The notes: generated by a model not told the origin, from the letters alone. Positions 15,784 through 64,000 are shown, counted from the stretch's first letter. The stretch is DNA of 64,000 bases from Microcoleus vaginatus WJT46-NPBG5 (GCA_019359355.1 JAHHHM010000015.1:45147-109146); one strand, 5' to 3'. Numbers and translations are program-made.

Positions 15784-15798
15784 AAAAGCGAGTTAACA

Positions 15799-41429: not shown

Positions 41430-41438
41430 GAACGAATA

Positions 41439-42542: not shown

Positions 42543-42566
42543 TTTGGAGCTTTCCCACTCTGAAAA

Positions 42567-43289
42567 ATGAAAAAAATCTTAGTAATTGAAGACGAAGAAG
42601 TGGTTCGCACTAACATTTTAGAATTATTAGATGCAGAAAATTTTGAGGCGCTTGAGGCAAGTAATGGCCTGCTAGGCATTCAGTTAGCGCAAAAAAATTT
42701 GCCCGATTTAATTATTTGCGACATTATGATGCCAAACCTTGATGGTTATGCCGTTTTGGCCGCTTTAAGAAGTGAGCCGATGACGGCTACAATTCCCTTA
42801 ATTTTTCTCACTGCTAAAGATGACAGAAGTTCTACGAGAAAAGGAATGGAGTTAGGAGCAGACGATTATTTAACGAAACCATGTACTGCAAATGAATTGC
42901 TAAAAGCGATTTCAATTCGCCTAGAAAAACACGCTGCTTATAAGCAACAGTACGCGGTTGAACGAGAGCGAGCCAAAGGGCTGCAGCAAAGAGTACGAGA
43001 GCTTCAGCAGGTAAATACTACCGCAGAAGATTTGCTCCACAGCCTTTCTCAGGAATTGCGCGATCCGCTGTCGAATATCACGATGGCAATTCAGATGCTA
43101 AAAATTGCTCCAACTGAAGAAGCTCGCACTCGCTATCTCAAAATTTTGCAAGAAGAGTGCGCCCGCGAAATTGCCATCATTAACCAGCTTGCGAACTTGC
43201 AAGATTTGCTCACGCCTGAAAATGTTAAGCTGCTGAGTCGAATAAATTTTATCAGAACGTTTAATTCTAATTCAAATTCCAGTTTGTAG
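42567..43289 (+). CDS. Response regulator (REC) with C-terminal coiled-coil / degenerate HisKA-like segment
   Basis: REC MKKILVIEDEEVVRTNILELL...CDIMMPNLDG...TKPC; C-terminal region has H-box-like LSQELRDPLSNI without an ATPase domain. Confidence 0.7.
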   Translation: MKKILVIEDEEVVRTNILELLDAENFEALEASNGLLGIQLAQKNLPDLIICDIMMPNLDGYAVLAALRSEPMTATIPLIFLTAKDDRSSTRKGMELGADDYLTKPCTANELLKAISIRLEKHAAYKQQYAVERERAKGLQQRVRELQQVNTTAEDLLHSLSQELRDPLSNITMAIQMLKIAPTEEARTRYLKILQEECAREIAIINQLANLQDLLTPENVKLLSRINFIRTFNSNSNSSL

Positions 43290-43363
43290 TATTCTTAGAG
43301 AAAATTGCCGAAAGTTTAAGTGAATTGAGCGAAGTTGAACTTTGTTAAAAATTTACAAGAAGT

Positions 43364-45136: not shown

Positions 45137-45311
45137 ACAATGATGAGTCATGAGCGAATAACTAAGGGTAGAACTTCTCAAATTTGTAATGAGCAATGAG
45201 CAACTGATCGTTATACAGGAGAAGATTCGTATGGGATAAATTTAAAAACAGATTCAGAGGTTGATTTTCCCTTAATTATGACCCTACTAACTAACAAATG
45301 ATAGCCAACAA

Positions 45312-46400
45312 ATGATCAAAATTTTAATCATTGAAGACGAAAGTGAAATCCGCGAGAACATTATAGAATTGCTTGAGGCGGAAAATTTCAAAGCAATCGG
45401 GGCGGAAACCGGCAAAATTGGCCTCAAACTGGCTGCCGAGCATTTGCCAGATTTAATTTTGTGCGATGTGATGATGCCAGAAATTGATGGTTATGCCGTA
45501 CTGGAAGCATTGCGTCAAGATCCACTGACAGCAACAATTCCCTTCATTTTTCTGACTGCTTTTGCTGACAAAGCACAAACTCGGAAGGGAATGGAACTGG
45601 GTGCAGACGATTATGTATCCAAACCGTGTAGCATTAAAGAATTGCTGAGAACAATTACCACTCGGCTCGAAAAGCAAGCAGCCATTGAGCGGCAACAAAC
45701 CCAAAAGCTTGAGAAATTACGCAGTAATATTATTTTATCGTTGCCCCATGAACTGCGAACTCCCCTGAATGGAATTCTTGCTTTTTCAGAACTTCTTCTT
45801 GAGGATTACGAATCTCTCGAAAGGTCAGAAGTTCAAGAAATGTTAGAGCATATTTATCGATCTGGAAAGCGATTATATCGGCTGACTCAAAATTTTTTGC
45901 TGTATGCCGAACTTGAGCTAATTGCCACCGATCCAGAAAGAGTCAAAGGACTGAAAAACAGCGAGACAAGTTTTGTCAAGAGCATTATTAAAAATGCTGC
46001 GGCTACTCACGCTAAACAAGTCTGTCGCGCCACCGATCTGCATTTAGATATTGAAGAAACAAGCGTGAAAATATCACCAGAGCGACTGATGAAACTCGTT
46101 GAAGAACTAGTGGATAATGCTTTTAAGTTTTCCGAAACCGGCACACCCGTGAAAGTTGCTAGCCGCATTGAAAATAATCAGTTTATTTTATCTGTCACGA
46201 ATCAGGGACGGGGTATGAAAGCGCAACAAATTGCTGAGGTGGGAGCTTATATGCAATTTGAGCGTAAGATATATGAACAGCAAGGCACGGGGTTAGGGCT
46301 AAGCCTCTCTAAACGCTTAGCAGAATTACACGGAGGGGGATTAACGATTGAGAGTGTACCTGATCAAGAAACCACAGTTTTTGTAACGCTTCCCTGCTGA
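45312..46400 (+). CDS. Hybrid response regulator / histidine kinase (REC-HisKA-HATPase)
   Basis: Third paralogous REC (MIKILIIEDESEIRENIIELLEAENF), H-box LPHELRTPLNGI, G2 GTGLGLSLSKRLAELHGG. Confidence 0.8.
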   Translation: MIKILIIEDESEIRENIIELLEAENFKAIGAETGKIGLKLAAEHLPDLILCDVMMPEIDGYAVLEALRQDPLTATIPFIFLTAFADKAQTRKGMELGADDYVSKPCSIKELLRTITTRLEKQAAIERQQTQKLEKLRSNIILSLPHELRTPLNGILAFSELLLEDYESLERSEVQEMLEHIYRSGKRLYRLTQNFLLYAELELIATDPERVKGLKNSETSFVKSIIKNAAATHAKQVCRATDLHLDIEETSVKISPERLMKLVEELVDNAFKFSETGTPVKVASRIENNQFILSVTNQGRGMKAQQIAEVGAYMQFERKIYEQQGTGLGLSLSKRLAELHGGGLTIESVPDQETTVFVTLPC

Positions 46401-48530: not shown

Positions 48531-49988
48531 TCAGATTTTTTTAAGTCGTGGATAAAGGGATTGATATCGAAACCAAGCCTCTTCTAGGGTTGGATCAACT
48601 GATTGCGGACTTGCAGCAAGCGTTGGTGTGGCTGCCAGTTTGATGGTGTCATTAGCATCTGCGTATACGCCAATTCCGATACCCGCCAGTAGAGCAGCAC
48701 CACGTCCAGAAGCCGCAGCAACTGTAGTTGAATAGAGGGGTATTCTCAATACATCACTCAGTAATTGTTTCCAAGGCATTTCTGCCGTTCCACCGCCGGC
48801 TAAACGCAGTTCTGTCGCCTTAAAACCTGTTGCCTCCAGTGCCTCAAAACCTTGTCGCAAGGCAAAAGCAACTCCCTCTAAAGCCGCCCGCATCAGGTGC
48901 GCCTGTGTGTGATGAAGTCCAAGCCCCACCCATGCCCCCCGTACATAGGGGTCGAGGTGTGGAGTTCGCTCACCTGTGAGGTATGGCAAAAATGTCAACC
49001 CTTCACATCCTGGGGGAACAGAAAACGCTTTAGTATAGACTTCCTGCCAGCTCAAACCGAGGATACCTCGCACCCACTCAAGCGCTAACCCGGCATTTTG
49101 CATTGCGGCAAGGGTATACCACTGGTTAGGTACGGCGGTTCGATAGAGATGTGTACGACCATGAGGATCGATAATGGGTTGCGATCGAGGTGTAATGATT
49201 TGAGCGCCTGTGCCGATGGTTAGTTGAACCAAACCAGGCTCTAGTAGTCCGTTACCAAGTGCCGCCGCTGCGGTATCCGCAGCACCAGCGATCACGGGTA
49301 AGCCAACTCTTAAGCCAAGATGCTCTGAAGCAATAGTTGTTAGGTAGCCGGCGATCGCACTAGAGGGGATAATTTCTGGTAACCAATCACCACGTAGATT
49401 CAGCGCCGAGATTGCATCCTCAGCCCAGTTGTCCGACACAACATCGTAAAGCAAAGTACCACTAGCATCAGATGGTTCGGTTGCAACTTCTCCAGTCATC
49501 CGTAACCGCAGCCAATCTTTTGGCTGAAGTGCCCAACGCGCTTCGGTGTAGACAGTAGCCTCGTGTTCTCGTAGCCACAACAAAGTGGGGCCGGCCATTC
49601 CAGCCGTAATCGGGTTGCCCAATCGCTCTAGAATAGCGGCATCGAGCGCATGATAAGCGCTAAGCGTGGCACTAGAGCGAGTATCTGCCCAGAGAATAGC
49701 AGGACGCAGAGGCTGACCCGACTCCGAAGCTAGAACAACACCATGCATCTGTCCTGAAAGTGAGATGGCTTGTACTCGATCGGCATAATTTCCTACAGCC
49801 TTCCTCACAGCCGAGGCAACAGCTAACCACCAATCCCCTGGCTCAGACTCAGCCCATCCAGGGTGGGGTGCATGAACAGGATAGGAGCTTGATGCTTCAC
49901 CTATAGCGGTTCCGTCTGTGGCTAGGAGCAATGCCTTAGCAGAGCCTGTTCCTAAATCTATTCCAAGCAGCATTAGGCTAATCCTCAA
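48531..49988 (-). CDS. FGGY-family carbohydrate kinase (xylulokinase-like)
   Basis: N-terminal LGIDLGTGSAKALL actin-like ATPase motif and FGGY C-domain (GGGTAEMPWKQLLSDVL). Start possibly the MLLGIDLG Met at 49970. Confidence 0.75.
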   Translation of the reverse strand: MRISLMLLGIDLGTGSAKALLLATDGTAIGEASSSYPVHAPHPGWAESEPGDWWLAVASAVRKAVGNYADRVQAISLSGQMHGVVLASESGQPLRPAILWADTRSSATLSAYHALDAAILERLGNPITAGMAGPTLLWLREHEATVYTEARWALQPKDWLRLRMTGEVATEPSDASGTLLYDVVSDNWAEDAISALNLRGDWLPEIIPSSAIAGYLTTIASEHLGLRVGLPVIAGAADTAAAALGNGLLEPGLVQLTIGTGAQIITPRSQPIIDPHGRTHLYRTAVPNQWYTLAAMQNAGLALEWVRGILGLSWQEVYTKAFSVPPGCEGLTFLPYLTGERTPHLDPYVRGAWVGLGLHHTQAHLMRAALEGVAFALRQGFEALEATGFKATELRLAGGGTAEMPWKQLLSDVLRIPLYSTTVAAASGRGAALLAGIGIGVYADANDTIKLAATPTLAASPQSVDPTLEEAWFRYQSLYPRLKKI

Positions 49989-50203
49989 ATACTTTATCGT
50001 TTCTCCTTAAGTTTGCTACAGATGATTGACACGGGGACGCTCCGGACGCGGAGACCGTGATACTTCTACATAATTGGTGCCGCCGAACACTTCTTTTTTG
50101 TCCAAAGCCCAATACTAATGGTATATCTACCCCTTCTAAACGGTCAAGCTTTTTCTACCATTCGGCAGGGGCTTCAGCTTGAAAAATTTTTTATGATTGT
50201 TAT

Positions 50204-51409
50204 GTGCAAAACCTGCCTTTATCTCTCTTTAATTTCACCTTAATAAATAATATGAGCTTCCTTTCGATCGAAGAACTGAAAGAACTCGTCGAACAGCCGC
50301 AAGGGCTATGTGTATCGATCTACATGCCGACCGTGCAGCTTGGGTCAGAAATTCAGCAAAACTCTGTCCGCTTTAAGAATCTCATTCGGCAGGCGGAAGC
50401 AGCGTTAGAAAAATATGAATCACCTCCGGCTAATCCAGAGCAATTTCTTCAGCCGGCAATGATGTTGGATGAAGATGACTTTTGGCAGCATCAGGACGCA
50501 GGTTTAGCTTTATTCATTTCAGAAGGGTTCTTCCGCTTCTATCGTGTACCAATCGACATGATTGAATTGGTGGTGGTGAATACTCGCTTTCATCTCAAGC
50601 CGTTAATTCCGCTGTTGAGTGGAGATGACCGCTTCTATATTCTCACGCTCGGTCAACGTGATGTGCGCCTTGTGGAAGCTAACCGCTACGGCATCACCCG
50701 TGAAGTCGAAATCGAAGGCTTGCCGAAGAGTATGGATGAAGCCTTGCAGTATGATGAAACGGCGAAAGATGAACAGCGACGTCAGGGCGCGGGCGCAGGT
50801 CGTTCAGCTTTGCAAGCAGGTGGTTCCTATCACGGACAGGGCGGCGAACGCGAAAACGTTAAGGAAGATTTGCTGCAATATTTCCTGTTAGTTGATAAAA
50901 GCTTGCATGACTTCTTTCGCAACCGCCGCTCGCCACTTGTGCTAGCTGGGGTTAACTATTTACTGCCGATTTACCAAGAGGCGAATACCTACAATTTCAT
51001 TGTAGAAGAAGGAATTCAACACAACACAAAGGAGCGAACAGCACAAGAACTTCATGCAGAAGCCTGGGCGATTGTGGAGCCGCTATTTCAAGCAGACCAG
51101 CAAAAAGCGATTGATTACTATCATGAGTCGATCGCCGCTGGCAAAGGATCAAAGGACTTGGACGAAGTTATTCAAGGCGCGTTTTATGGTCGAGTAGAAC
51201 AGCTTTTTGTTCCGGTCGGTGTGCAAAAATGGGGGCATTTTGATCCGGACTCAATGGAGCTTGAAAGGCACGATGAGGCTCAACCGGGCGATGAAGATTT
51301 GCTGAATGCAGCAGCCATTCAAACGATCTTTCATGGGGGCACGGTGTACGCCGTTGAACCGGGAGCAGTGCCAGATGAGGCACCTGTTGCAGCAGTCTTT
51401 CGCTACTAA
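50204..51409 (+). CDS. Conserved hypothetical protein (possibly an eRF1/Pelota-like baeRF-type fold; unverified)
   Basis: About 385 aa hydrophilic protein with a Gly-rich loop (GGSYHGQGGERE) and C-terminus AAIQTIFHGGTVYAV...VAAVFRY; no firm family. True start probably MSFLSIEEL at 50252. Confidence 0.4.
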   Translation: MQNLPLSLFNFTLINNMSFLSIEELKELVEQPQGLCVSIYMPTVQLGSEIQQNSVRFKNLIRQAEAALEKYESPPANPEQFLQPAMMLDEDDFWQHQDAGLALFISEGFFRFYRVPIDMIELVVVNTRFHLKPLIPLLSGDDRFYILTLGQRDVRLVEANRYGITREVEIEGLPKSMDEALQYDETAKDEQRRQGAGAGRSALQAGGSYHGQGGERENVKEDLLQYFLLVDKSLHDFFRNRRSPLVLAGVNYLLPIYQEANTYNFIVEEGIQHNTKERTAQELHAEAWAIVEPLFQADQQKAIDYYHESIAAGKGSKDLDEVIQGAFYGRVEQLFVPVGVQKWGHFDPDSMELERHDEAQPGDEDLLNAAAIQTIFHGGTVYAVEPGAVPDEAPVAAVFRY

Positions 51410-51644
51410 TTGGCCCAATGTTAAGTGGATGCCTAAGCCAGGAAGTCACTCTCCTGGCTCGGCTACAAAACCGTGCATGAATCGTTAGATTCACACGGCT
51501 CCTCAATGACTTGGTGCTTGTCAAACACACCTATAAATTCCGAGTTAGAAGGGATTACGGTTGAAGGGACTTCAGAAAATACAGCGGTTCCCGCTGTAAG
51601 AGCTGTATATTTTATTTCTTGGAAGTCCCTAAACTACATTGTAA

Positions 51645-53150
51645 TTAATGGAGTTTGCAGACACGCTCTAGCGTTCCTTTAGTACCAAACTCATGCAAAC
51701 TGCTCAACTTGTCAGCAACAGTTTCGACGAAACGTAGCGACTGTCCTAAATCTCCAAAAATTTCAAAGATGCTGAGGAAGGGTGTGGGATCTGTTTTACC
51801 TGAGCCGGCTTGTTGAGTGAGGATATCAGCTAAGGGGTCATCAATGATGATAGGACGGTTCTGGTCGTCATAACCATTAAGATAGTGACACCAAGCAGCA
51901 ATCGTCAAACTTAGGTAATCAATCGCACCTCCAAGTTGTAATTTATCGCGGATCGAACCCAAAACAAACTTAGGAAGTTTGGCCGATCCATTCAGGCATA
52001 GGCGCGGAAGTTGATCGCGAATTTTGGGATTGGAAAACCGTTCAATTAAAGTCTTTTTATAATCGTCTAAATCAATTCCAGGAACGGGTTGGAGCGTTGG
52101 TGTCACCTCGTCCATCAGGTTAGCGACTGCTTGCCGGAATAACGGGTCTGCCATGACTTCATAAACGTATGTATAACCGGCCACAGAGCCGAGATAGCCA
52201 ATCAACATATGACTGGCGTTGAGCAGCCGAATTTTCATCATCTCGTAGGGATGAACGTCGTTAGTCATCTGTACGCCAACGGATTCCCAATCGGGTCTGC
52301 CGGCACAAAAAGTATCTTCAATTACCCACTGGATGAAAGGCTCCGCGACGCCTGGAAACGCATCATTAATCCCAAACTGTTCCGCCACCATTTTGATATC
52401 TGCTGGGGTTGTCATCGGAGTAATGCGATCAACCATGCAGTTGGGAAACGCAACGTGTTCAGCAATCCAACGTCCTAACTCTGGATCGCGCATTTCGGCA
52501 AATGTCGTTAGCATTTTCCGCACCATCTTGCCATTGCCCTGGATATTGTCGCAGGACAGTACGGTAAAGGGTGCTAACCCCTGTTGACGCCGCTTTTCGA
52601 GTGCGGCTGTCAAAAAACCGTATGTCCCGATTGGTTGGTCAGGATGTTGCAAATCGTGCTGAATCGTGGGGTGGTTCACATCAAATTCGCCACTTCCTTC
52701 AATGTAGTAGTAGCCGCTTTCAGTGATCGTTAGAGTCACAATTCGGCATTTGGGATCTGCTAATGCTTCAATAACTGCTTGACGATTGTCAGGTGCAAAC
52801 AGGTAGCGAGTGATTGAACCGATGATTCGAGCGTGATCGCCTTCTAGCGAGCGCTCAACTAAGGTATACAAACAATTTTGGGATAGAAGCGCATCCCGCA
52901 TACGCCTGTCATAGTCATAGTCCAGCAATCCAACACCACAAATGCCCCAATCACTACCCGGATTCTGATGGAAATAATCATCCAGATAAAGCGCTTGATG
53001 CGATTTATGAAATCCACCAACCCCAATATGCACAATTCCATTAGTAATTTGCCGGCGATCGTACTGGGGTACGCGCACGTTTCCAGGTAAACGAGACAGG
53101 GATGCTTGATTCAGCTTGATTGTTGAGCCGGTGCTGGTATTGCTGTTCAT
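51645..53150 (-). CDS. Long-chain mannitol dehydrogenase family oxidoreductase (mannitol 2-DH / fructuronate or mannonate reductase type)
   Basis: NGIVHIGVGGFHKSHQALY Rossmann start plus a 500-aa two-domain layout typical of the M2DH family. Confidence 0.75.
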   Translation of the reverse strand: MNSNTSTGSTIKLNQASLSRLPGNVRVPQYDRRQITNGIVHIGVGGFHKSHQALYLDDYFHQNPGSDWGICGVGLLDYDYDRRMRDALLSQNCLYTLVERSLEGDHARIIGSITRYLFAPDNRQAVIEALADPKCRIVTLTITESGYYYIEGSGEFDVNHPTIQHDLQHPDQPIGTYGFLTAALEKRRQQGLAPFTVLSCDNIQGNGKMVRKMLTTFAEMRDPELGRWIAEHVAFPNCMVDRITPMTTPADIKMVAEQFGINDAFPGVAEPFIQWVIEDTFCAGRPDWESVGVQMTNDVHPYEMMKIRLLNASHMLIGYLGSVAGYTYVYEVMADPLFRQAVANLMDEVTPTLQPVPGIDLDDYKKTLIERFSNPKIRDQLPRLCLNGSAKLPKFVLGSIRDKLQLGGAIDYLSLTIAAWCHYLNGYDDQNRPIIIDDPLADILTQQAGSGKTDPTPFLSIFEIFGDLGQSLRFVETVADKLSSLHEFGTKGTLERVCKLH

Positions 53151-53355
53151 CTTAATTTATGACCTTGTGATGACGCCTTATTATCGGTATTGCAGGAAGT
53201 GTGAAAAAGGTGGAGTCAATTTTGGCGGCTCTGCATGGCAGGTTGAGGGCAAGACTGATCTCCGATGAAGTTGTCGCCCAGGCTATTCTTAACAAAATCT
53301 GACTTTTCACACATCCTGCTAAGGGCATCAAGCGATCGCCTGATGCCCCATGTCC

Positions 53356-54099
53356 TTACACTAGCGTTGCTGATAATAAGCCGATAAGGTCGTGCATCCG
53401 CTCGATAACTTGGTGGGCACCAGCCGACTGAAGAGCATCGGCACGGCTGCTTCGTTCTTCCTCGCTGATATGAGTTCCCCCTACATAACCGATAATCTGC
53501 CCAATTCCAGCGGCAACGGCAGACGTTACCCCACTGAGAGAATCTTCAACAGCGACGCAATCCGAAACTTCAGCGTCCAGGCACTTCACGGCATATAGGT
53601 AGATGTCAGGAAGCGGCTTGGGACGCGAAAAGGGGAGAGAGTCGTGAGCGCTAAATATCTGATCATTGGGGAAATAGTCGGTCAAGGCAGCTGCACCAAG
53701 GCAAGCACTCAGTCGCTGTAAGCTGCTGTTACTTACTAGCGCATATTCAAATCCGTCGTCGCGCAGGGAAGAGAGCACTTCAGGCGTTCCTTCAGTCGCT
53801 TTTGCCTCTACACTAAGCCGATCAATGGCTCTCTTTTCTTCTTGAGCCACTAGCGTGTCAATATCGCGCTCATTAAGACTGGTTAATGAATCTGGGTAGA
53901 GCTTTTTGAGTATTTCCCTGTAGGGTTTGCCGGCGAAGCTTTTAACAAACTCCTCAAGCTCATAGTGTTGAGCGCCAGGGAACTCACGAGCCACTTCATT
54001 TGTCAGCTTCCACGCGCTCTTAAGCGCTATGGTTTCACTATCAACGACAGTTCCATCATGATCGAAAAGTACCATCTTAGGATGCTGAAGCGGTTTCAT
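53356..54099 (-). CDS. HAD-superfamily hydrolase (beta-phosphoglucomutase-like sugar phosphatase)
   Basis: Motif I MVLFDHDGTVVDSE, motif II LVSNS, motif IV near VEDSLSG. Start most likely the second Met (54075), which butts against the upstream gene's stop. Confidence 0.75.
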   Translation of the reverse strand: MKPLQHPKMVLFDHDGTVVDSETIALKSAWKLTNEVAREFPGAQHYELEEFVKSFAGKPYREILKKLYPDSLTSLNERDIDTLVAQEEKRAIDRLSVEAKATEGTPEVLSSLRDDGFEYALVSNSSLQRLSACLGAAALTDYFPNDQIFSAHDSLPFSRPKPLPDIYLYAVKCLDAEVSDCVAVEDSLSGVTSAVAAGIGQIIGYVGGTHISEEERSSRADALQSAGAHQVIERMHDLIGLLSATLV

Positions 54100-55582
54100 T
54101 TAAAAAGCCTCCCTCACTGTAATTCTTAAGCGTAGTCAATAGTCCGTGGGTCTGAAGATCTTGCAAAGCTTGGTGGCATTCATTATCAACGACCTCTGTC
54201 TGTTCGCAATTCTCCAATTCCAGAATCCCGCTAATCACTGCGCCTTCTTGAATCGCTGTAATTGCGCTTTCGGTATCCTTGGCATGATAGGGCTGACCAG
54301 ACTCGCTCGCCCCTTCTCTGACTGCAAGAAGCCACGCCGCAACGGGAAGTACAATCCGCTTGATGCTGACCTTTCGGCTATAAGCATCCTCAAGTATCGG
54401 AAATATATACTTGCCTACTTTCCTCGCTGTTTCTGAAGCGATTCTCTCAGTAGTATCGGGAAGCTTCTCGTTACTCAGTCTTAGTAACACCTGCTCCATA
54501 TATTGTTCACACATCTCGCGAGGCACGGGTGTTGCTGCTGCGATATCGCTCATCAAAAGCCGAGTAAACAACTCAAATTCCGGTTGCCTGATCGCCTCAT
54601 GCATATACTCTATACCTGCTCTTACCGCTAAACAGGCTATGAAGGAGTGTACCGCATTCAAGAATCTCGACTTCATATACAGAAAGGGAGTGATGTCTTT
54701 CGTCATAATGACTCCCACATCTTCCCACTTGGGTCGCTCACCTGTGAAGTTGTCTTCCACGACAAACTGCCAAAATGGCTCTGTAACAATAGGTGCGCGA
54801 GCGCGAACTTGCAACAGTCGCCTAGGGTAGTTATAGTCGGATTCTTGCTCTTGAGGCACAATCCTGTCTACAACCGTATTAGGGAAGGTCGCGTTATCCC
54901 TGATGTATTCTGCAAGCTGAGGATCGATCAGGTCAGCATAAGCTAGCACGCCTTTTCGCAGGATCTCCCCATTTCTTGGGAGGTTGTCGCAAGAAACGGT
55001 GGTGAAAGGGTTCATTGCGAGATCGCGTCGTCGGCGTAGCGCCTCTACGATAAAGCCAATTGCAGTGATAGGAGTGGAAGGATTTTGCAGATCGTGCGCG
55101 ATGTCTTCATTCGCTGTGTCGAGATTAAAACTCTTGTCTAGATGGTAGCCTCCTTGAGTAATTGTCAGAGTCACAAGGTGCACAGAGGAAGATGTCATCT
55201 TTTCAAGCACATAGTCGCACTTCTCTCTACCATTAACGATTTCTTTGATAGAACCGATAACTTCTGCTTCCTCACGCTTTTTAGCGGAACTAGAGTGTTT
55301 GGTCAAAGTGTAAAGGAATGTCTGCGGTTTCAACCTATTAATGGTGCGTTGGCTCTTGAGGCTAACCCCACAAATCCCCCATTTCTGCTCTTGAGAACCC
55401 TTCTGTACAAGATAGTTATGTATTATGTAGGCGAGGTGACCCCTAAAAAAACGACCTGGGCCGAAATGGACGATACCAGTATTAAGCGCGCTTCTGTCGT
55501 AAGGAGACTGTTCCTCCCACAAACCCGTTACAGTACCGAGGCGAGAACTTGAAACACTGGGCGGTCTGAGTAAGTTAACCAT
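54077..55582 (-). CDS. Second long-chain mannitol dehydrogenase family oxidoreductase (paralogue)
   Basis: GIVHFGPGRFFRGHLAYI start; same length (501 aa) and block order as the 51645 gene (for example NASHMLIGYL vs NAVHSFIACL). Confidence 0.75.
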   Translation of the reverse strand: MVNLLRPPSVSSSRLGTVTGLWEEQSPYDRSALNTGIVHFGPGRFFRGHLAYIIHNYLVQKGSQEQKWGICGVSLKSQRTINRLKPQTFLYTLTKHSSSAKKREEAEVIGSIKEIVNGREKCDYVLEKMTSSSVHLVTLTITQGGYHLDKSFNLDTANEDIAHDLQNPSTPITAIGFIVEALRRRRDLAMNPFTTVSCDNLPRNGEILRKGVLAYADLIDPQLAEYIRDNATFPNTVVDRIVPQEQESDYNYPRRLLQVRARAPIVTEPFWQFVVEDNFTGERPKWEDVGVIMTKDITPFLYMKSRFLNAVHSFIACLAVRAGIEYMHEAIRQPEFELFTRLLMSDIAAATPVPREMCEQYMEQVLLRLSNEKLPDTTERIASETARKVGKYIFPILEDAYSRKVSIKRIVLPVAAWLLAVREGASESGQPYHAKDTESAITAIQEGAVISGILELENCEQTEVVDNECHQALQDLQTHGLLTTLKNYSEGGFLNETASAS

Positions 55583-56165
55583 TAGAGTTCTTAGATAAGT
55601 GGATAATGAGGTAAAATCAAACTAGGTCACTCTGGGTAAAGCGAATGACCTACAAACAGCACAAATCTTTCAAAGTGCGAAAATTTTGAGCCTCTTCTGT
55701 AGCATCTACAAAGAAGCGTATTACCACAAAGTAATTGGGGTCTGATAGGTAAAGCAGAGAAAGAAAAAATCAGGTAAACCTAATTAGAATCAAAGATCTA
55801 TTAGTCATTAACCTGAAGTAAGGCACAAGAGTATGCCGCATACTGCCACTTTGTTCAGCTTTGGCAATTGCGTAAGTCGAATGTCTGTCCTGTAAGGCGC
55901 AAATATACTGCTTTTAAATTCTGCTTTGAGATTCCCCAATAACTCTGTACACGCTCATCTTATTTCCCTTGGTTGCTGCTAGGCTCCGTCTTCAGGAGAA
56001 TCTAAAACAAATTCTTTAGAGGGAGTTATATCAATAATCAAGGTATACTTCGCTACAAGCAGTTAAGTTAGAGTTTGGCGTTTGTGTAGCCAGCCTCCAA
56101 AAAACAACGCTTGCGTTGAAAAGTCCTGTCTGTAGCTGATGGCTGATACAGCACTGCTAGTCCGT

Positions 56166-56520
56166 TTCAGTCTCTCCAGAAATTTTTAAAGTTTCCTAAC
56201 TCACAACTCGGATCTGCACTCCTCTTGAGCAAATCCTCCATAGATACCTGACAATCTGGAAATGCCGAAGGTGCGATTAAATCGGACTCTGCCAATACAA
56301 CCTGGCTAGCATAACCCTCTGCCCCAAGCTCCCGAAAAACATACAATCGACGGGCATTGATATTTAGAATCCAATACTCCCTAATTCCTCGATTTTTGGT
56401 TGCTTTTTAAAGTAATAATATAGCCCGCTTCTTGCTCGTTAATTAACTTGTCAATATCTTTTTGGTAGCCCCTAGCATTGATCGTGACAATACAGCCAGC
56501 CAGGTCTAAAACTTGATGAG
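56166..56520 (-). pseudogene. Frameshifted remnant of a Uma2-family (DUF820) endonuclease gene
   Basis: Minus-strand frames read ...VLDLAGCIVTINARGYQKDIDKLINEQEAGY then (frameshift) IREYWILNINARRLYVFRELGAEGYASQVVLAESDLIAPSAFPDCQVSMEDLL. This fits the Uma2 C-terminal pattern (Y..AG..EYWIVD....V.VY.L..G.Y.......L.S..FP.L.L.L..IF). No intact ORF. Confidence 0.45.
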
Positions 56521-56764
56521 TTCAGTAATAGCGGTAATATCGTTCTCAATGTTATTATAATTATTGGCCCTGAGGAAAACCTCTGTGAACAAAAGTTGAG
56601 GAATGAATGGTCTCTCTGAGAATGAGGATCAACGCGTATAGACAAGGGGAAACACCAGAAAACCTGGCTTTTCCCCTAATGATCTGATGATTATTCTATC
56701 CAACCTAGAAAATTTTGGGCTTGTTGAGAATAGGACGGCAATATCAGTTTGTAGAAAGTTTGGT

Positions 56765-57343
56765 TCACTCAATCGCTCGAACAGAACCATGAATTGTTTG
56801 AATGATTGGGAGGGATGAGTTATTTTTTTGGTAGTAACTTTTCAGAAAAAGTGTTTCAGTTTTGTTGTAACAAATTAAGGTAACCATTGTATTGGTGTTT
56901 GCGCCGGCAAACCAAAGTCTTACGGCTTCTCGCCCGCCCACTTTCGTTTTCCCTCTGCGAGTTAACCGAGTTCCGGGTTCAACAGAGTTGAGCATTTGAT
57001 TGACAACCGTTTCCAAATTATCAGGTTCAATGGCGATATCCGTCTTAATTAAATTGGACGGAACTCTGCCACCGCCAAGGGTTGGTTTTAGATTGGTGAT
57101 AATGAGCAATTCTCTAGGCGTCGCGCCGGCAGGTTGCGGACTTCTTTCTAAAAACCAGCTTGATGGGTAGCGAATTGAAAATTCATTGGGAATTTGATAA
57201 GTTTGCCAGCTTTTGACTTCAGCACTATTTTGAGCGAAACTTGGGTTAATTCCTAATTGACTGGGCAGCGGAAAAGCGGTTAAAATAACTAAATTTGCGA
57301 TGGCAATTGCCAGCAAAACTTTGAATTTGATTTTAAGCGTCAT
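56765..57343 (-). CDS. Secreted hypothetical protein
   Basis: 192 aa with N-terminal signal peptide MTLKIKFKVLLAIAIANLVILTAFPLPSQLG; no recognised domain. Confidence 0.5.
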   Translation of the reverse strand: MTLKIKFKVLLAIAIANLVILTAFPLPSQLGINPSFAQNSAEVKSWQTYQIPNEFSIRYPSSWFLERSPQPAGATPRELLIITNLKPTLGGGRVPSNLIKTDIAIEPDNLETVVNQMLNSVEPGTRLTRRGKTKVGGREAVRLWFAGANTNTMVTLICYNKTETLFLKSYYQKNNSSLPIIQTIHGSVRAIE

Positions 57344-57507
57344 AATTAAGTCCAGGTAGAGGACAATTCGGAAATAGTAGAAACCGGCACCCCTTCAATG
57401 GCGGGGATATTTTACCTTACGGTGCCGGCACACACAGCTTCAGGACGAATTAGAAAATCCTCAGTTCCAGTCTTAAGACTCAAAACCCTCAAGTTTTCAG
57501 GACTATT

Positions 57508-57960
57508 TTAAACTAAATTAAATTCTTTGAGTGCCGGCAAGAAGTTATTATTTTCATGTCCGGAACGGCTGAGTTTGATTAAGGCAAATCGTCGCAGCGG
57601 AGTCAGGGAAGCCCATTGCGCCGGCAGCAAATTTACGCCACATTCTTCTGCCTTTTCCTGAACACTTGCCGGCACAGTTTTTTCATCCATCCAAGCGGGA
57701 TTTTCCTCAACCGGCAAATCTGATGCCGGTGTGCCGGTGCGTTTCACTACTAAATCGTGCAACCAATCTCGGTAAGCTTGAATGTCTGCCGGTGTTGTAC
57801 AAGGATGATCAACCAATGCTTGCCGTTCCTCTTGGTTAAACTTATGCCAATGGGGAAGTTTTAGCTTAACTCCACAAGTATCTAACTTGAGACGTACCTG
57901 CATAGGAATGCAGCGCAGGGACTCTACAAAATCTTCTTCAAATTGAAAAAACTCAGTCAT
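57508..57960 (-). CDS. narM: Nitrate reductase-associated protein (NarM-like)
   Basis: 150 aa starting MTEFFQFEEDFVESLRCIPMQVRLKLDTCGVKL, as recalled for the small protein family found next to cyanobacterial narB; position immediately downstream of narB supports the call. Confidence 0.5.
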   Translation of the reverse strand: MTEFFQFEEDFVESLRCIPMQVRLKLDTCGVKLKLPHWHKFNQEERQALVDHPCTTPADIQAYRDWLHDLVVKRTGTPASDLPVEENPAWMDEKTVPASVQEKAEECGVNLLPAQWASLTPLRRFALIKLSRSGHENNNFLPALKEFNLV

Positions 57961-58055
57961 TGAATTGCAAATAACGAATTCCCGATTTTCATGATTAATT
58001 ATCCTTCATCCTTTGATTTTTTTGACTTAATAGTAGGGTACATGACTCACGAACC

Positions 58056-60305
58056 CTACTGAGTCGAAGCAACTGGAGAAAGTACGCGCGGCTGCACTTC
58101 AACCTCAACACCGGCAGCCTTTATCTGTGCGCCAACCGGCATTAACTGCACCGCACAGGCTTTTAATTCCGGTTGTTTCGACTCTGGGCAAAAAACTGGA
58201 TGGGTGAGGGCATTGGCTTCTGCATCGTCTGCCCATAAAAAACCCCAATGGATCGGTACAAATAAAGTGCCGGCGGTAATCGCTTTTGTGATTTTTGCTG
58301 GGAAACGGGCTTTTCCGCGACGGGATCGCACCTCAACCCAATCATTCTCCTGAATGCCGAGTTTCTGGGCATCACGGGGATGAATTTCGATAAACGGGTT
58401 AGGGTGCATTGCTGCCGTTTTCTCAATCCGTCCTGTGCGCGTCAGGGTGTGCCAGTGTCCATACAGCCGGCCATTTGTCAAGACAAACGGATAGTCGGGA
58501 TCGGGCGGTTCCGCGAGTCCCCGCGAGTGATAAGCGCCAAATCGTGCCCGTCCATCCGGCGTGTGGAAGCGTAAATCGGTGTAAAGCCGTTTAGATGAAG
58601 CCGCCGGGGAACGATGCAATGACATCACACCCCCATTTTCCCTCTCTTCTTCCGGGCATGGCCATTGCATTGGGCCTTCTGTTTTCAATCGGCTGTGACT
58701 AATGCCGGTTTGATCACAGGGGCGATCACGGGTTAACTGCACGTATTCTGCATAAACTTCTGCGGCATTTTTGAAAGAAAATTGCTGGGTAAAGCCCAAC
58801 CGGCGGCCCACTTCTGCAAACACTTCCCAGTCTGCTTTCGCTTCTCCCGGTGGGGTGCGAAATGCTGGACACAGGGTAACGACGCGTTCAGAATTGGTCA
58901 TCGTGCCGCTTTTTTCACTCCACTGGGCTGCCGGCAGCAACAGGTGGGCATAAGCAGCGGTTTCCGTGGGATAGTACGCCTCAGAATAGACGGTAAAGGG
59001 GGATTGGCGCAAAGCTGCTTTCGTGCGTTCTAAATCGGGCATACTCACCAGCGGATTGGTGGCGACAACCCATAGAAATTCAACGTCCCCAGCTTCTATG
59101 CCGGTGATAATATCCCATGCAGAACGACCCGGTTTGGGTGCAATTTGCCCCGCTGGTAGATTCCAAAACTGTTCAACTTCCTGCCGGTGTTGGGGATTGG
59201 TGACAAAACGGTAGCCCGGAAGCAATAGAGAAAGCCCGCCGGCTTCTCGTCCGCCCATTGCATTGGGCTGGCCGGTGAGGGAAAATGGCCCTGCCCCAGG
59301 CTTGCCAATTTGAGCGGTCATTAGGTGCAAATTAATAATCGTGCGGGCTTTGGCGGTTCCCTCACTCGATTGATTAATCCCCATCGACCATAACGACAAA
59401 ACACGCCCAGATTCGCCCCAGTAACGGGCTGCGGTTTCTAGATCATCCATGCGAATGCCGCATTTTCTGGCAACCAGTTCCGGGGGATAGTGGCGAATGA
59501 CTTCTGCATAGTCGGGAAAACCGCTGGTGCATTCGTCAATGAATACGCTATCGATGTAACCCCAGCGCATTAATAAATGGGCGATGCCATTCATTAAATC
59601 GATATCGGTTCCTGGGTGAATGGCTAAGTGTAAATCGGCGGCTTCTGCGGTGGTGGTGCGACGCGGATCGACGACAATTAATTTGACATTCTGATTTTTT
59701 TTGTGATGTTTTCGTAGCCGGTTGAAGATAATCGGGTGACACTCTGCGGTATTGGTGCCAATTAAAAAAGCACAATCTGTCAGTTCCAAATCGTCATAGC
59801 AACAGGGAGGGCCATCGTAACCAAAACTTTGGATATAAGCGGCTACTGCACTCGACATACATAAGCGGGAATTGGCATCAAAATTATTCGTGCCAATACA
59901 GCCTTTTAAGAGTTTTTGAGCAGTGTAATAATCCTCCGTTTGTAGTTGCCCAGAACCATAAAAACAGATGGCATCTGCGCCTCGGCTAGTGCGAATCTTT
60001 TGGATGCGATTGACAATTTTATTGAAGGCTTCCTCCCAACTCACCCGTTGGAAGGGTTGATCAAGGGAATCTCGCATCATTGGGTGAAGCAGCCGGTCTT
60101 TTCCTAAAGACTCGGCAATCGTGGCACCTTTAACACAAACCATGCCTTGACTGGAAGGATGGCTGCGATCTCCTTGTACTTTCCAAAGCGGATTTCCTTG
60201 AGCATCCCGATTGGTGGGTTTATTCGCTTGCGCCGGCGGGGAAACTTCTAAACCACAACCCACCCCGCAGTAAGGGCAGAGAGTTTTAATTGATTCACTC
60301 ATCAC
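58056..60305 (-). CDS. narB: Assimilatory ferredoxin-nitrate reductase (molybdopterin oxidoreductase)
   Basis: N-terminal 4Fe-4S motif [13 protein letters not shown]-binding domains, 749 aa. GTG start at 60305 or ATG at 60302; overlaps the nirA stop. Confidence 0.9.
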
Positions 60306-61974
60306 TGTTTTCCCCGTCTATTTCTGCCATCGCAATCGGAGGTTTGTAATATTCTGATTGCCTCGGTTGTGCGCCAAAGTTTTCGATTAGCAAGTTTCGC
60401 AACACCGGCATCAAATCTTCACAGGGAATTCCTTGCATGACTCGTTCCCCTAAATGAGCGTCTTTCCCAACTTTTCCCCCCATCCAGATGTCAGCCGCTT
60501 CCACAACTTGACCGTTTTTGCGTCCTTTTGTCCCCATCAAACCAATGTCCGCAACTTGTGGTTGTCCACAAGAATTTGGGCAACCTGTCCAATGAATTCG
60601 CACAGGTTCAGGCAGCGTTAATTCTGCTTCCAAAGCTTTAATCATGGCTAAGGCGCGATTTTTCGTTTCTATGAGGGCAAAGCCGCAAAATTGACTGCCG
60701 GTGCAAGAAACTAACCAGCGGGAAACGTTATCGGGATTGATGGTAAACCGTTCTTGCAATAAAGGTTCTTTTAAGAACGCTTCCATGCGGGAATCTGGAA
60801 TATTGGGAATCAGCAAATTTTGCTCAACCGTCAGGCGAATTTCCCCACTGCCGTAGACATCTGCGATTCGGGCAATTTCAAACATTTCATTGGCATATAA
60901 CCGCCCGATGGGAACGTGCAAACCGACATAATTTAATCCCGGTTGTTTTTGTTTAAAAAGGCCGATATGGTCCCGTTTATCCCAATTGACTTCATCTTTT
61001 TCCGCTGCCGGTTCTAGGGAATGACCGAGTTGTTTCTCAACTTCTTCTCGAAACTTTTCAACTCCCCATTCATCAATGAGATACATCAGCCGAGACTTTT
61101 GCCGATTTGCCCTTAATCCGTGATTACGAAATACGAGCAAAACAGCTTCACAAACCGCAACAACATCTTCCGGAGTCACCCAAGCATTGAGAGGAATAGC
61201 TTCAACATATCGCTTCGGAGAAAACATCCCACCCACGATGATATTAAAGCCGATTTGATCTTCCTTATAAGCTGGAATAAAGGCAAGATCGTTGGTTTCC
61301 GCATGAACAGAATTGTCCCGACAGCCGGCAATGGCAATATTAAATTTTCGGGGTAAATTTGTAAATTGTGGATTGCCTTTTCCCATGCCGGTGATCATAT
61401 CTTGAACCGCACGGCACAAGCCTTGCGTATCGATCAATTCATCAGCTTCAAGTCCAGCAAGGGGGGAACCTGTTACATTCCGTACATTATCCATGCCGGT
61501 TTGAACACTTGTCATTCCATATTGATGAAACCGGCGAAAAATATCGGGAACATCTTCAATCCGAATTCCCCGAAGTTGCATATTTTGCCGCGTGGTGATG
61601 TCAGCGTTGCCTTCATCTCCATAGCGTTGCACTACCTCAGCGTACACTCTCATGTGGCTGCTGGGTAAAATGCCATTGGCGGTTCGCATCCGCATCATAA
61701 ATTTGCCAGGAGTGACGGTGCGATAAAACAAACCTAACCATTTTAATCGGGCATCCCGGTCAATTTCATCAATGGCTTCCCAGCCAATTTTGGCAAAATA
61801 ATCTACTTCGTCTTTGAGTGCTAAACCATCTTTTTCGGCTTTAAATCTTTCAAATTTGTTAACATTTTTAGCCGGCGCGGTGGCGCTGGTCATGTTTTCA
61901 AATTTATTGATAACTGCTGGAGAATTCTCGACTTCTGGCATGGATTTACCCTCCTTGCTTAGTTGCATGGGCAA
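60295..61974 (-). CDS. nirA: Ferredoxin-nitrite reductase
   Basis: Sirohaem/4Fe-4S cysteine clusters [16 protein letters not shown] and [17 protein letters not shown]; duplicated NiR/SiR half-domains. Conserved core starts around [13 protein letters not shown], so the start may be 61941 or 61893 rather than 61974. Confidence 0.9.
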
Positions 61975-62050
61975 TCACATTGGTATTGACTGTGCCTGAT
62001 ACCAATTTGAAAAATGATTGCTACATGATGCCGGTTGGGTTGATCAACCC

Positions 62051-62183
62051 AACATCTCAAATGCTTATAAATGTTGGGTGTCGCTATCGCTTTACCCAAC
62101 CGAATTGGCTTGTAGTTGAGTTTTTAACCCAACCTCTTAAATGCGTGTAGGTGTTGGGTGTCGCTATCGCTCTACCAAACCTA
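62051..62183. repeat. Two tandem 56-nt direct repeats, each with a cccaac/gttggg hairpin, in the nirA leader
   Basis: Copy A 62051-62106: aacccaacatctcaaatgcttataaatgttgggtgtcgctatcgctttacccaacc. Copy B 62128-62183: aacccaacctcttaaatgcgtgtaggtgttgggtgtcgctatcgctctaccaaacc. A palindrome ggttgggttgatcaacccaac sits just upstream at 62036. Confidence 0.7.
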
Positions 62184-62201
62184 CGGCTATGCTTTTTTGT
62201 T

Positions 62202-62243
62202 AGATTACTCAGGTAGATAAACGAACTTCGTATTGTCTGTTAC
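62202..62243 (-). promoter_or_regulatory. Candidate NtcA-activated promoter for nirA-narB-narM
   Basis: GTA-N8-TAC box (gtattgtctgttac, 62230-62243; TGTA-N8-TACg on minus), 22-nt spacer, then TAATCT on the minus strand (complement at 62202-62207). This is the class II NtcA geometry; predicted TSS about 62195, leader about 220 nt. Confidence 0.55.
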
Positions 62244-62500
62244 AAACAAGGTGTTTAAACCGGCAAATCTATCTGAAGAAGTATTCAGTTTATTTTTTAT
62301 ATAATCGTGGAGGCCGGCTAAGGTATTATTTCTGTTTGACTTTTAAAAGTTTATCGACCGGGTTTTAAAATAAGCTGGGTTTCCATTGCTCCGATTGGCA
62401 GTCCTAAATATGTAAAGCATCAATTCACTTGAGAATCTCAGTCTAGACATTTTCTAGGCGGATATTTCTTAGGACTGCCCAGATTTTATCGATTGCGCTT

Positions 62501-64000
62501 TCACACAGAAAGAGACGGAGAGCGACTCGCTAAAGTAGACTGATGTGCCGGCTCAGAGTAAACAGGCTCAGCAGAAACCGGCACCACCCGCACCGCACAG
62601 GCTTTTAATTCCGGTTGCAGAGAGTCGGGACAAGATTCGGGATGAGTAAGGGCGTTTGCCTCGGCATTGTCTGCCCATAAAAAACCCCAGTGCATCGGCA
62701 CAAATAGGGTGCCGGGGGCAATCGCTTTGGTAATTTTGGCTGGGAAGCGAGCAAAGCCACGGCGGGATCGCACTTCCACGCAAACGTTTTCTTGAATACC
62801 GAGTTTTTGGGCATCACGGGGATGAATTTCGATAAACGGGTTGGGGTGCATTCCTGCCGTCTTTTGAATCCGTCCGGTGCGCGTCAGGGTGTGCCAGTGC
62901 CCATAAAGCCGGCCAGTTGTCAGGACAAATGGGTAGTCAGGATCGGGGGGTTCAGCCAGTCCTTTAGAATGAAAAGCCCCAAATCGCGCCCGTCCATCCG
63001 GCGTATTAAACCGGCAATCGGTATAAAGACGTTTCGCTGAAGTTTTCTGGGAACGGTGCAAAGCGGGTAAACCATGATTCTGTCCCTCTGCTTCCGGGCA
63101 GGGCCACTGAATTGGGCCTTCTGCCTGTAGCCGGCTGTAATTCAGTCCAGACATATCACAAGGACGACTTTTTGTTACCTTAACGAACTCAGCATGAACT
63201 TCAGCGGAATTGGCAAAATTAAAGTGTTCCGTAAAGCCCAACCGGCGACCCACTTCCGCGAAAATTTCCCAGTCAGGGCGAGCTGTACCGGGCGGTTCCC
63301 GAAATGCAGGACACAGCGTAACAACTCGCTCAGAGTTGGTCATCGTGCCGGTTTTTTCGCTCCACTGAGCTGCCGGCAGCAGGACGTGAGCGTATTCTGC
63401 GGTTTCCGTGGGATAGTAAGCGTCCTGATACACCGTGAAGGGAGAGCGAAGCAGTGCCGCCTTGGTGCGCTCCAAATCTGGCATACTCACGGCTGGATTC
63501 GTGGCGGCAACCCACAAGAAACCGACCTCACCCGTTTCTAAGCCGGTGATCATCTCCCACGCAGTAAGACCTCGTTCCGATGCAATTTGGCCGGCCGGCA
63601 GTCCCCACAATTGTTCAAGCTCAGCTCGGTGTTGCGGATTTTTCACCAACCGATAACCGGGTAAGATGTGGCAAAGCCCGCCGGCTTCTCGTCCGCCCAT
63701 TGCATTGGGCTGGCCGGTGAGGGAAAATGGCCCAGCTCCCGGTTTACCAATTTGAGCCGTCATCAGGTGCAAATTGATAATGGTTCGCACCTTAGCGGTT
63801 CCTTCCGAGGACTGGTTGACCCCCATCGACCATAAAGACAAAACGCGCTGGGATTCGCCCCAGTAACGGGCTGCGGTTTCCAGCTCATCAATGCGGATGC
63901 CACAGCGTCTGGCGACCATTTCCGGGGGATATTGGGCAATCACCTCTGCATAGTCTGGGAAGTTCGCCGTGCATTCGTCAATAAAGGCGCTATCGATATA
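62501..64000 (-). CDS. narB: Second assimilatory nitrate reductase paralogue (C-terminal two thirds; gene continues beyond window end)
   Basis: Collinear with narB copy 1 from about residue 250 ([50 protein letters not shown] vs [50 protein letters not shown]). The frame stays open to position 64000, so the apparent start at 63943 is an internal Val codon. Confidence 0.85.

Follow-up and report, generated by a model that had tools for sequence, protein, structure and literature searches.

The minus strand at the end of a 64,000-nucleotide stretch of Microcoleus vaginatus WJT46-NPBG5 DNA (GCA_019359355.1, JAHHHM010000015.1:45147-109146; the whole stretch is referred to below as the window) carries two diverged genes for ferredoxin-nitrate reductase, narB1 and narB2, with a gene for ferredoxin-nitrite reductase, nirA2, between them. 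We find that narB2 closes a nir operon of the canonical kind, transporter genes included, whose remaining genes are all past base 64000, and that nirA2-narB1-narM is a second unit directly behind it. In our interpretation, ten genes for nitrate assimilation would form a supercluster of two co-oriented, adjacent transcription units, and the window end would contain its downstream part. Unit 1 would be the canonical operon of nirA-Fer2, nrtA-nrtB-nrtC-nrtD, a NarK-family major facilitator superfamily (MFS) transporter gene, and narB2, and unit 2 a compact, transporter-less nirA2-narB1-narM. Taken as a whole, the reading that we favor, namely two adjacent units derived from merged nir-cluster lineages whose narB genes then became partly homogenized, has by our estimate a probability of roughly 0.7. 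Cyanobacterial cells are usually described as having a single NarB and a single NirA for nitrate assimilation; this locus has two diverged pairs.

The source sequence is a 173,146-bp contig of a metagenome-assembled genome (MAG). The MAG was compared with two isolates, Microcoleus sp. FACHB-672 and FACHB-68, and with ~160 cyanobacterial narB loci, taken with at most 10 kb of flanking sequence from metagenomes and from the species representatives of GTDB.

Gene order of the second unit

A listing of open reading frames (ORFs) for positions 52000-64000 gives, 5' to 3' on the minus strand, the 3' part of narB2, a 559-bp spacer, nirA2, narB1, and narM, with narB1 overlapping the nirA2 stop, the gene order given in a preliminary description of this DNA. 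The 3' two-thirds of narB2 (62501..64000) encodes residues 249-747 of a 747-aa ferredoxin-nitrate reductase; its frame is free of stops for 500 codons up to base 64000, and this part is 100% identical to the full-length protein MBW4681630.1 (P0001). The spacer (61942..62500) is followed by nirA2 (60295..61941), the first gene of operon 2, which encodes a 548-aa ferredoxin-nitrite reductase without a ferredoxin extension. The longest nirA2 ORF spans 60295-61974, with the ATG at 61941, preceded by AAGGAGG, as its likely start. The ferredoxin-nitrate reductase paralogue narB1 (58056..60302; longest ORF 58056-60305, 749 codons) encodes the 748-aa protein MBW4681628.1, whose accession number is two apart from that of NarB2. 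Its ATG (60302) and the nirA2 TGA (60297-60295) overlap by 8 nt, ATGAGTGA, and because of this overlap narB1 is likely to be translationally coupled to nirA2.

The gene for the 150-aa nitrate reductase maturation/associated protein, narM (57508..57960), begins 95 bp 3' of narB1 and is probably the last gene of operon 2. It also stands 3' of narB in most of the other loci compared. All three genomes (source, FACHB-672, and FACHB-68) have a single narM for two narB genes, and unit 2 would then provide the sole narM for both NarB enzymes; narM was reportedly found by Maeda and Omata to be required for NarB activity in Synechococcus.

The upstream operon and the soundness of the assembly

The sequence upstream of base 64000 was reached through orthologues. 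The NarB1 orthologue P0013 (94% identity) led to FACHB-672, the NrtC of that genome to the source NrtC (97%), and the latter to a 29.8-kb Logan contig (L163) whose last 297 bases equal window positions 64000-63704 at 100%. This contig holds, in order, a divergent HPP-family gene, a 1.67-kb spacer, nirA-Fer2, nrtA-nrtB-nrtC-nrtD, a NarK-family MFS gene, and the first 347 codons of narB2. Two tandem nir operons, one of the explanations put forward in the preliminary description, is thus supported, with nirA-Fer2-nrtABCD-MFS upstream of narB2 and nirA2 preceded by an NtcA-type promoter motif of its own. The same description had stressed that no transporter genes intervene between nirA and narB; this is true inside unit 2, but as a sign of an atypical locus it was overstated, the transporters being in the upstream operon. 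That the organism lacks transporter genes is likewise rejected, as nrtABCD and the MFS gene lie directly upstream of narB2.

The unit 1 nitrite reductase, NirA1-Fer2, is a 626-aa protein with a plant-type [2Fe-2S] ferredoxin domain at residues 548-624. NrtC has 670 aa, NrtD has 465 aa and scores above the TIGR01184 cut-off, and the MFS transporter matches TIGR00886 (NarK family) with 356 bits against a cut-off of 312. Unit 2 would depend on these proteins of unit 1 for nitrate and nitrite import.

Could the tandem arrangement be an artefact of assembly or binning, in which a repeat was collapsed or made chimeric and separate loci were joined? Unitig assemblies do break in narB: Logan contigs stop at nt 1041 of the gene and begin at nt 1908. 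These positions fall in the longest runs of identity between narB1 and narB2 (61 nt, nt 1012-1072, and 35 nt, nt 1903-1937), and since the break points sit inside sequence shared by the paralogues, they account for the fragmented unitigs and speak against a chimera. The runs are also far too short to have misled paired-end or scaffolded assemblies alike three times, and an identical 10-gene order is found in the MAG and on a 210-kb contig of FACHB-672 and a 968-kb contig of FACHB-68. One independent 3.6-kb Logan contig (L001, run SRR35147778) equals window 59262-62837 at 100% and runs from the 3' end of narB2 through the spacer and nirA2 into the 5' end of narB1, including the interval 61975-62500 at which a collapsed repeat had been feared, while L163 covers the passage from the MFS gene to the narB2 5' end. 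GenBank accession spacing in 3/3 genomes is consistent with one gene between the two narB. An artefact is, on these grounds, extremely improbable. Identical runs within narB do break short-read assemblies, and such paralogues may be under-counted, lost, or fragmented in MAGs.

Three further features of unit 1 and its flank were noted. NrtD, usually ~280 aa, has 465 aa in the source (L163 12089-13486) and 531 aa in a related complete genome (L165 4901-6496); beyond the ATPase domain, the long form continues with a low-complexity linker, then a hydrophobic segment, and finally ~110 C-terminal residues without a family match. The HPP-family membrane protein gene (L163 3300-3968, minus strand), which is divergent from operon 1, is also present in FACHB-672; proteins of the HPP family reportedly include nitrite transporters. 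Finally, a NarK-type MFS gene stands directly before narB in most of the sampled nrtABCD clusters, ~36 loci versus ~8 with nrtD followed by narB (L002-L161), although ATP-binding cassette (ABC) and MFS nitrate transporters are usually presented as alternatives.

Family membership of the enzymes

The assignment of both copies to NarB is based on 74-80% identity to cyanobacterial proteins, numbering in the hundreds, that bear the name NarB or ferredoxin-nitrate reductase. Phormidium chalybeum NarB (Q51328), for example, is 78% identical to NarB1 and 74% to NarB2. Profile searches place both among the molybdenum-bis(molybdopterin guanine dinucleotide) (Mo-bisMGD) enzymes of the assimilatory nitrate reductase/NapA/formate dehydrogenase group, and no NCBIfam equivalog model matches either copy at or above its cut-off. 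NarB1 has the Fe4S4, Molybdopterin, and Molydop_binding domains; the part of NarB2 encoded in the window has the last two, and the full-length protein has all three, including Fe4S4. The [4Fe-4S] motif CxxCxxxC...C, as CPYCGVGC...MVCVKG, and the Mo-ligand cysteine motif (SRLCMSS in NarB1) are intact in both copies and in FACHB-672; that the cysteine of the latter motif is the Mo ligand we take from homology to NapA Cys140. Both proteins are predicted to be catalytically active ferredoxin-nitrate reductases.

The nitrite reductases score well above the 594-bit cut-off of the ferredoxin-nitrite reductase equivalog NF007125, NirA2 with 859 bits and NirA1-Fer2 with 910. NirA2 has NIR_SIR and NIR_SIR_ferr domains and retains CTGSQFC and CPNSC, instances of the siroheme/[4Fe-4S] motifs CTG(S/A)QFC and CPNSC. 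The closest NirA structures are plant nitrite reductases (E = 1e-172). NarM matches TIGR02664 with 192.8 bits (cut-off 110) and PF09655 with 226 bits (cut-off 25).

The closest solved structure to NarB is Desulfovibrio desulfuricans NapA (PDB 2NAP/2JIO), a monomeric nitrate reductase of the Mo-bisMGD fold that aligns over residues 5-720 with E = 3e-145; the matches of this search included no NarB structure from a cyanobacterium. NapA is periplasmic and respiratory, whereas NarB is cytoplasmic, assimilatory, and ferredoxin-dependent. The window also encodes moeA, for molybdopterin molybdotransferase, which is needed for the NarB cofactor (29588-30871, plus strand, ~27 kb from narB1). Its neighbor is a cobalamin adenosyltransferase gene (28103-28771, minus strand), and a cbiJ/cobK gene lies farther off (11769-12623, plus strand).

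Divergence and selection

NarB1 and NarB2 are collinear and align without gaps, with unrelated tails after about residue 727, in agreement with the divergent C termini seen earlier. They share 79% identity over the 478 residues within the window, 81.5% over 726 aligned residues of the full proteins, and 80.5% over 742 codon-aligned positions. Their DNA identity is 77% (0.772), with a synonymous divergence (dS) of 1.03 and a ratio of nonsynonymous to synonymous divergence (dN/dS) of 0.13. NirA1-Fer2 and NirA2 have 68% amino acid identity and saturated dS. The gapless alignment over 726 residues is what might be expected of a recent narB duplication with near-redundant copies, as the preliminary description had considered. 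The divergence values, a dS of ~1.0 among them, however, rule this out. Moreover, orthologues are 94-97% identical versus 81% for the paralogues, so that the copies were distinct before the three genomes split.

Between the source and FACHB-672, identity and dN/dS are 94% and 0.082 for narB1, 97% and 0.056 for narB2, 97% and 0.043 for nirA2, 96% and 0.112 for nirA1, and 97% and 0.025 for narM. Because orthologue dN/dS values are 0.04-0.11, both sets are under purifying selection, and both are older than the split of the three genomes. An intact 747-aa product and a dN/dS of 0.056 also exclude narB2 as the pseudogene that the preliminary description had allowed for.

At the same time, the second pair has changed at positions that are otherwise conserved. 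An alignment with 151 other cyanobacterial NarB sequences gives 365 columns with conservation of 97% or more; at these, NarB1 has 11 deviations that are shared with FACHB-672, and NarB2 has none. At the 90% level, NarB1 deviates at 24 columns (median 6, maximum 27). For NirA, 230 columns are conserved to 95% or more, and NirA2 departs from them at 13, NirA1-Fer2 at 6, and the other sequences at a median of 1 and at most 12. Within this sample, NarB1 and NirA2 are therefore the most or near-most derived members of their families. Such counts could indicate that one reductase set is decaying, dead or silent and heading for loss. We consider this very unlikely, as the ORFs are intact in three genomes with orthologue dN/dS of 0.082 (narB1) and 0.043 (nirA2), all metal-ligand motifs are retained, the substitutions at conserved columns are mostly conservative, and the nirA2 promoter and leader are better conserved than synonymous sites. 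With purifying selection acting on two intact reductase pairs, the most likely outcome is a cell that produces two isoenzymes each of NarB and NirA.

Candidate promoter and predicted leader of nirA2

To the 559-bp spacer between narB2 and nirA2, a three-genome alignment gives two parts. The ~190 bp proximal to the narB2 stop vary in length and content, whereas the ~370 bp before the nirA2 ATG are ~94% identical, compared with ~71% at synonymous sites of the flanking genes. The conserved part contains a candidate NtcA-activated promoter (62202..62243, minus strand) made up of GTAACAGACAATAC (62243-62230), 22 nt, and TAATCT (62207-62202). The pattern GTAN8TAC-N22-TAN3T has 2 matches in the 64-kb window, with 0.19 expected; one of them is this site, on the correct strand, and it is invariant in 3/3 genomes. 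The motif suggests that unit 2 is under NtcA control. Driven by its own promoter, unit 2 would, as other nir operons do, turn on when nitrogen is limiting or in response to 2-oxoglutarate. The ~60 bp 5' of the promoter are also invariant in the three genomes and include an inverted repeat, TGAATACTTCTTCA, which is a possible LysR/NtcB site. Unit 1 has two GTAN8TAC sites of its own, one lying 325 nt 5' of its ATG, with TAACTT 22 nt behind it, and the other 134 nt 5' of the ATG; the promoter regions of the two units have no similarity to each other.

The unit 2 transcript would carry a conserved, structured 5' leader of ~260 nt (61942..62200, minus strand), its start being placed from the -10 box. 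In the leader, a ~55-nt hairpin repeat with the core GGTTGGGTAGAGCGATAGCGACACCCAAC occurs in two copies (62153-62181 and 62073-62101, minus strand), both of which fit the pattern GGTTGGGT-N14-ACCCAAC, and a 20-nt perfect palindrome, GTTGGGTTGATCAACCCAAC, is found at ~62034-62053 on the same strand. The predicted minimum free energy of the leader is -82.2 kcal/mol, with z = -4.7 relative to shuffled sequences. Within the window, the hairpin repeat is found only in this leader, and it is also present at L164 17818-18098; it is conserved in FACHB-672 and FACHB-68, where there is an extra copy just 3' of the narB2 stop. A role in RNA stability or processing is possible, as is a small mobile repeat. 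An Rfam search of the whole window gave nothing at the gathering threshold and, in the spacer, only a chance-level match. A similar hairpin element is present between nrtA and nrtB of Anabaena catenula (L077 3576-3604).

The only other full match to the NtcA-type promoter pattern in the window (35156-35115, minus strand) precedes a pair of genes, a LysR-family regulator (34103-35077, minus strand) directly 5' of a TrpD-like protein (32939-34024; NCBIfam PRK07394, "hypothetical protein," 535 bits). Homologues with 67-78% identity adjoin nirA elsewhere, at 17 loci for the LysR gene and 13 for the TrpD-like gene; here, the pair is ~27 kb from the nir genes. Judging from these homologues, the LysR gene is probably ntcB with a conserved partner, and the TrpD-like partner is possibly the nirB of Synechococcus.

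Origin of the two units

Neighbor-joining (NJ) trees of NarB and NirA were generated with simple distances and 200 bootstraps. NirA2 and NirA1 are sisters in 0/200 bootstraps. Instead, NirA2 groups in ~70% of bootstraps with NirA proteins encoded 3' of nrtABCD, including those of nirA-narB-narM loci, and NirA1-Fer2 groups with a clade of operon-leading nirA genes. In 82% of bootstraps the partner of NarB2 is the narB product of a different organism (L002), with NarB1 outside the pair in a five-sequence clade (60%); exclusive monophyly of NarB1 and NarB2 appears in 14%. NarB1 is not specially close to the NarB of nirA-narB-narM loci. We propose that the locus arose by merger of a nirA-led, ABC-type operon with a nirA-narB-narM module of the type found 3' of nrtABCD in other cyanobacteria, and that the narB paralogues would later have been partly homogenized by gene conversion.

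Direct evidence for conversion comes from the 61-nt identical tract (nt 1012-1072; window ~59231-59291 in narB1 and ~63673-63733 in narB2). At two synonymous sites in this tract, both source paralogues have CCC/CGA, while both paralogues of FACHB-672 and of FACHB-68 have CCA/CGG; at a third site, source narB2 agrees with narB1 and not with its own orthologues. Because synonymous variants co-vary within genomes, the tract indicates recent gene conversion between the narB copies. Relationships also vary along narB: the N-terminal 150 columns join NarB2 to L002, columns 351-560 give NarB1 and NarB2 as nearest relatives in 0/100, and other segments weakly favor the paralogue pair.

The main rival to the merger is an ancient tandem duplication, within the lineage, of the operon or of narB, after which the second copy lost the transporters and evolved faster. 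Faster change at conserved sites in NarB1 and NirA2 is expected of a redundant copy, and Kastovskya adunca, with nirA-MFS-nirA-MFS-narB, offers a precedent for module duplication in nir clusters. The DNA identity between narB1 and narB2 (0.772) also exceeds that of either copy to outgroups (0.73-0.75). Against these points stand the placement of NirA2 in the other NirA clade, apart from NirA1, the bootstraps that join NarB2 to L002 to the exclusion of NarB1, the segment at columns 351-560, the dissimilar promoter regions, and the unequal GC content at third codon positions (GC3) of the units. On balance, we hold such a duplication to be unlikely, though of the alternatives it has the best claim.

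Several observations nonetheless count against the merger of two separate units. The nearest non-orthologous relative of NarB1 among 5.8 billion proteins is NarB2, with 82% identity compared with at most 79% for all others, a result that taken alone favors in-lineage duplication of narB. Gene conversion likely reconciles this closeness with a merger, but it is directly shown for one short tract only. The NJ support is moderate (60-82%), and the segment trees are weak. GC3 is 0.51-0.59 in the unit 1 genes, 0.40 in nirA2 and narM, 0.48 in narB1, and 0.44 ± 0.07 in 18 background genes; operon 1 is either compositionally foreign or biased by high expression, so the difference could reflect expression level rather than origin. 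Lastly, a generic sigma-70/terminator scan, with hits at background level, gave no convincing intrinsic terminator on the 3' side of narB2 on the minus strand, and because none is clear, some read-through from narB2 into nirA2 is possible. With a merger as the favored origin, either unit could be the native one and the other the incoming one.

Rarity and relation to known systems

The preliminary description had called the arrangement atypical, and for the two narB genes this holds: among the ~160 loci, only those of FACHB-672 have two narB in one cluster within 10 kb. For the direct nirA-narB junction it does not, since this occurs in 8 other loci (L005, L012, L059, L064, L079, L082, L089, and L152). 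The NarB1 type forms one 90% cluster in the 5.8 billion proteins, consisting of the three genomes and a 42-residue fragment, and scans of genome and metagenome contigs with NarB2 gave best matches of 80-82% identity. The closest complete genome, JGI Ga0573898_002 (NrtC 84%, NarB 82%), has the order nirA-Fer2-nrtABCD-MFS-narB-narM and no second nirA/narB set. A literature search in an incomplete library found no description of narB paralogues or of two narB in a cyanobacterium; the genes themselves are already annotated in GenBank.

The canonical cyanobacterial operon is nirA-nrtABCD-narB, as in Synechococcus elongatus PCC 7942 and Anabaena PCC 7120. Unit 1 has the same order, NtcA-type sites upstream, and the same enzyme families. 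It differs in that a NarK-type MFS gene also precedes narB2 and in that a second nirA-narB-narM unit with its own promoter motif follows, in which no transporter genes separate nirA2 from narB1. Unit 2, in turn, resembles the nirA-narB-narM modules of the eight loci named above, which have narB directly behind nirA and, where the contig continues, narM 3' of narB. Three of them, L079, L012 (Allocoleopsis sp.), and L005 (Waterburya sp.), have the order (nrtABCD-)MFS-nirA-narB-narM, and their NirA, together with that of L082, belong to the clade that NirA2 joins in ~70% of bootstraps. Those modules, however, contain the sole nirA/narB pair seen at their loci, and nirA and narB are separated by 36-282 bp (L059 has an apparent overlap of high-scoring segment pairs) rather than overlapping by 8 nt.

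The C-terminal extension of NirA1-Fer2 is like the [2Fe-2S] ferredoxin-like extension that Suzuki et al. reportedly described in 1995 for Plectonema boryanum NirA, and ~19 of 102 sampled NirA are similarly long. As NirA2 lacks it, the organism has one fused and one unfused nitrite reductase. Another soil-crust cyanobacterium with a nir-cluster duplication is Kastovskya adunca ATA6-11-RM4 (L026/L112), which also has two NirA, one per NirA clade; there, however, the duplicated unit is nirA-MFS and narB is single, in the order nrtC-nrtD-nirA-MFS-nirA-MFS-narB.

Every gene belongs to a known family, and unit 1 is the textbook operon. What is new is the stable tandem coexistence of two diverged NarB/NirA pairs, confined so far as seen to one small lineage, together with a second pair that, within this sample, has the most or near-most derived members of its families and is nevertheless under strong constraint, and evidence of gene conversion between the narB copies. 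One might go further and picture NirA2 and NarB1 as a functionally specialized isoenzyme pair, with kinetics, electron-donor preference, or expression tuned, for example, to desert-crust wetting pulses, iron, or redox, with expression controlled post-transcriptionally via the hairpin-repeat leader, and with gene conversion keeping only parts of the narB genes alike; we regard this as speculative and rather improbable. No new enzyme family or mechanism is implied, and functional specialization of the two sets would be needed for the locus to gain in interest. It does offer a natural system for the limits of pathway flux and specificity, for gene conversion in tandem paralogues, and for the modular assembly of nir clusters, with FACHB-672 and FACHB-68 as two culturable isolates of the lineage.

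Other genes in the window

A conserved hypothetical gene, orf192 (56765..57343, minus strand), lies 3' of narM and encodes a protein with an N-terminal hydrophobic segment and no Pfam or NCBIfam match. It is also 3' of narM in FACHB-672 (85% identity) and FACHB-68 (188 aa) and in no other locus, and it is a possible member of operon 2. The genes 3' of orf192 are not alike in the source and FACHB-68. Just 3' of the nir genes in the window is a sugar-alcohol cluster (48531-55582, minus strand) with two mannitol-dehydrogenase-family paralogues of 501 aa each around a HAD phosphatase and an FGGY kinase close by, the synteny of which is kept in FACHB-672 and not in FACHB-68.

Farther away, the plus strand at 35748-46400 has an ORF of 1893 aa followed by four consecutive response-regulator-containing signalling proteins, namely two hybrid histidine kinases, one REC-HisKA protein, and one REC-GGDEF-EAL protein. 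Four co-oriented plus-strand genes at 13530-19631 resemble a poly-gamma-glutamate capsule system and encode a Mur-ligase-like CapB, CapC, an HlyD-like protein, and a PGA_cap/CapA protein with a CarboxypepD_reg domain. Such a system is unexpected in a filamentous cyanobacterium and may be linked to sheath or exopolymer formation.

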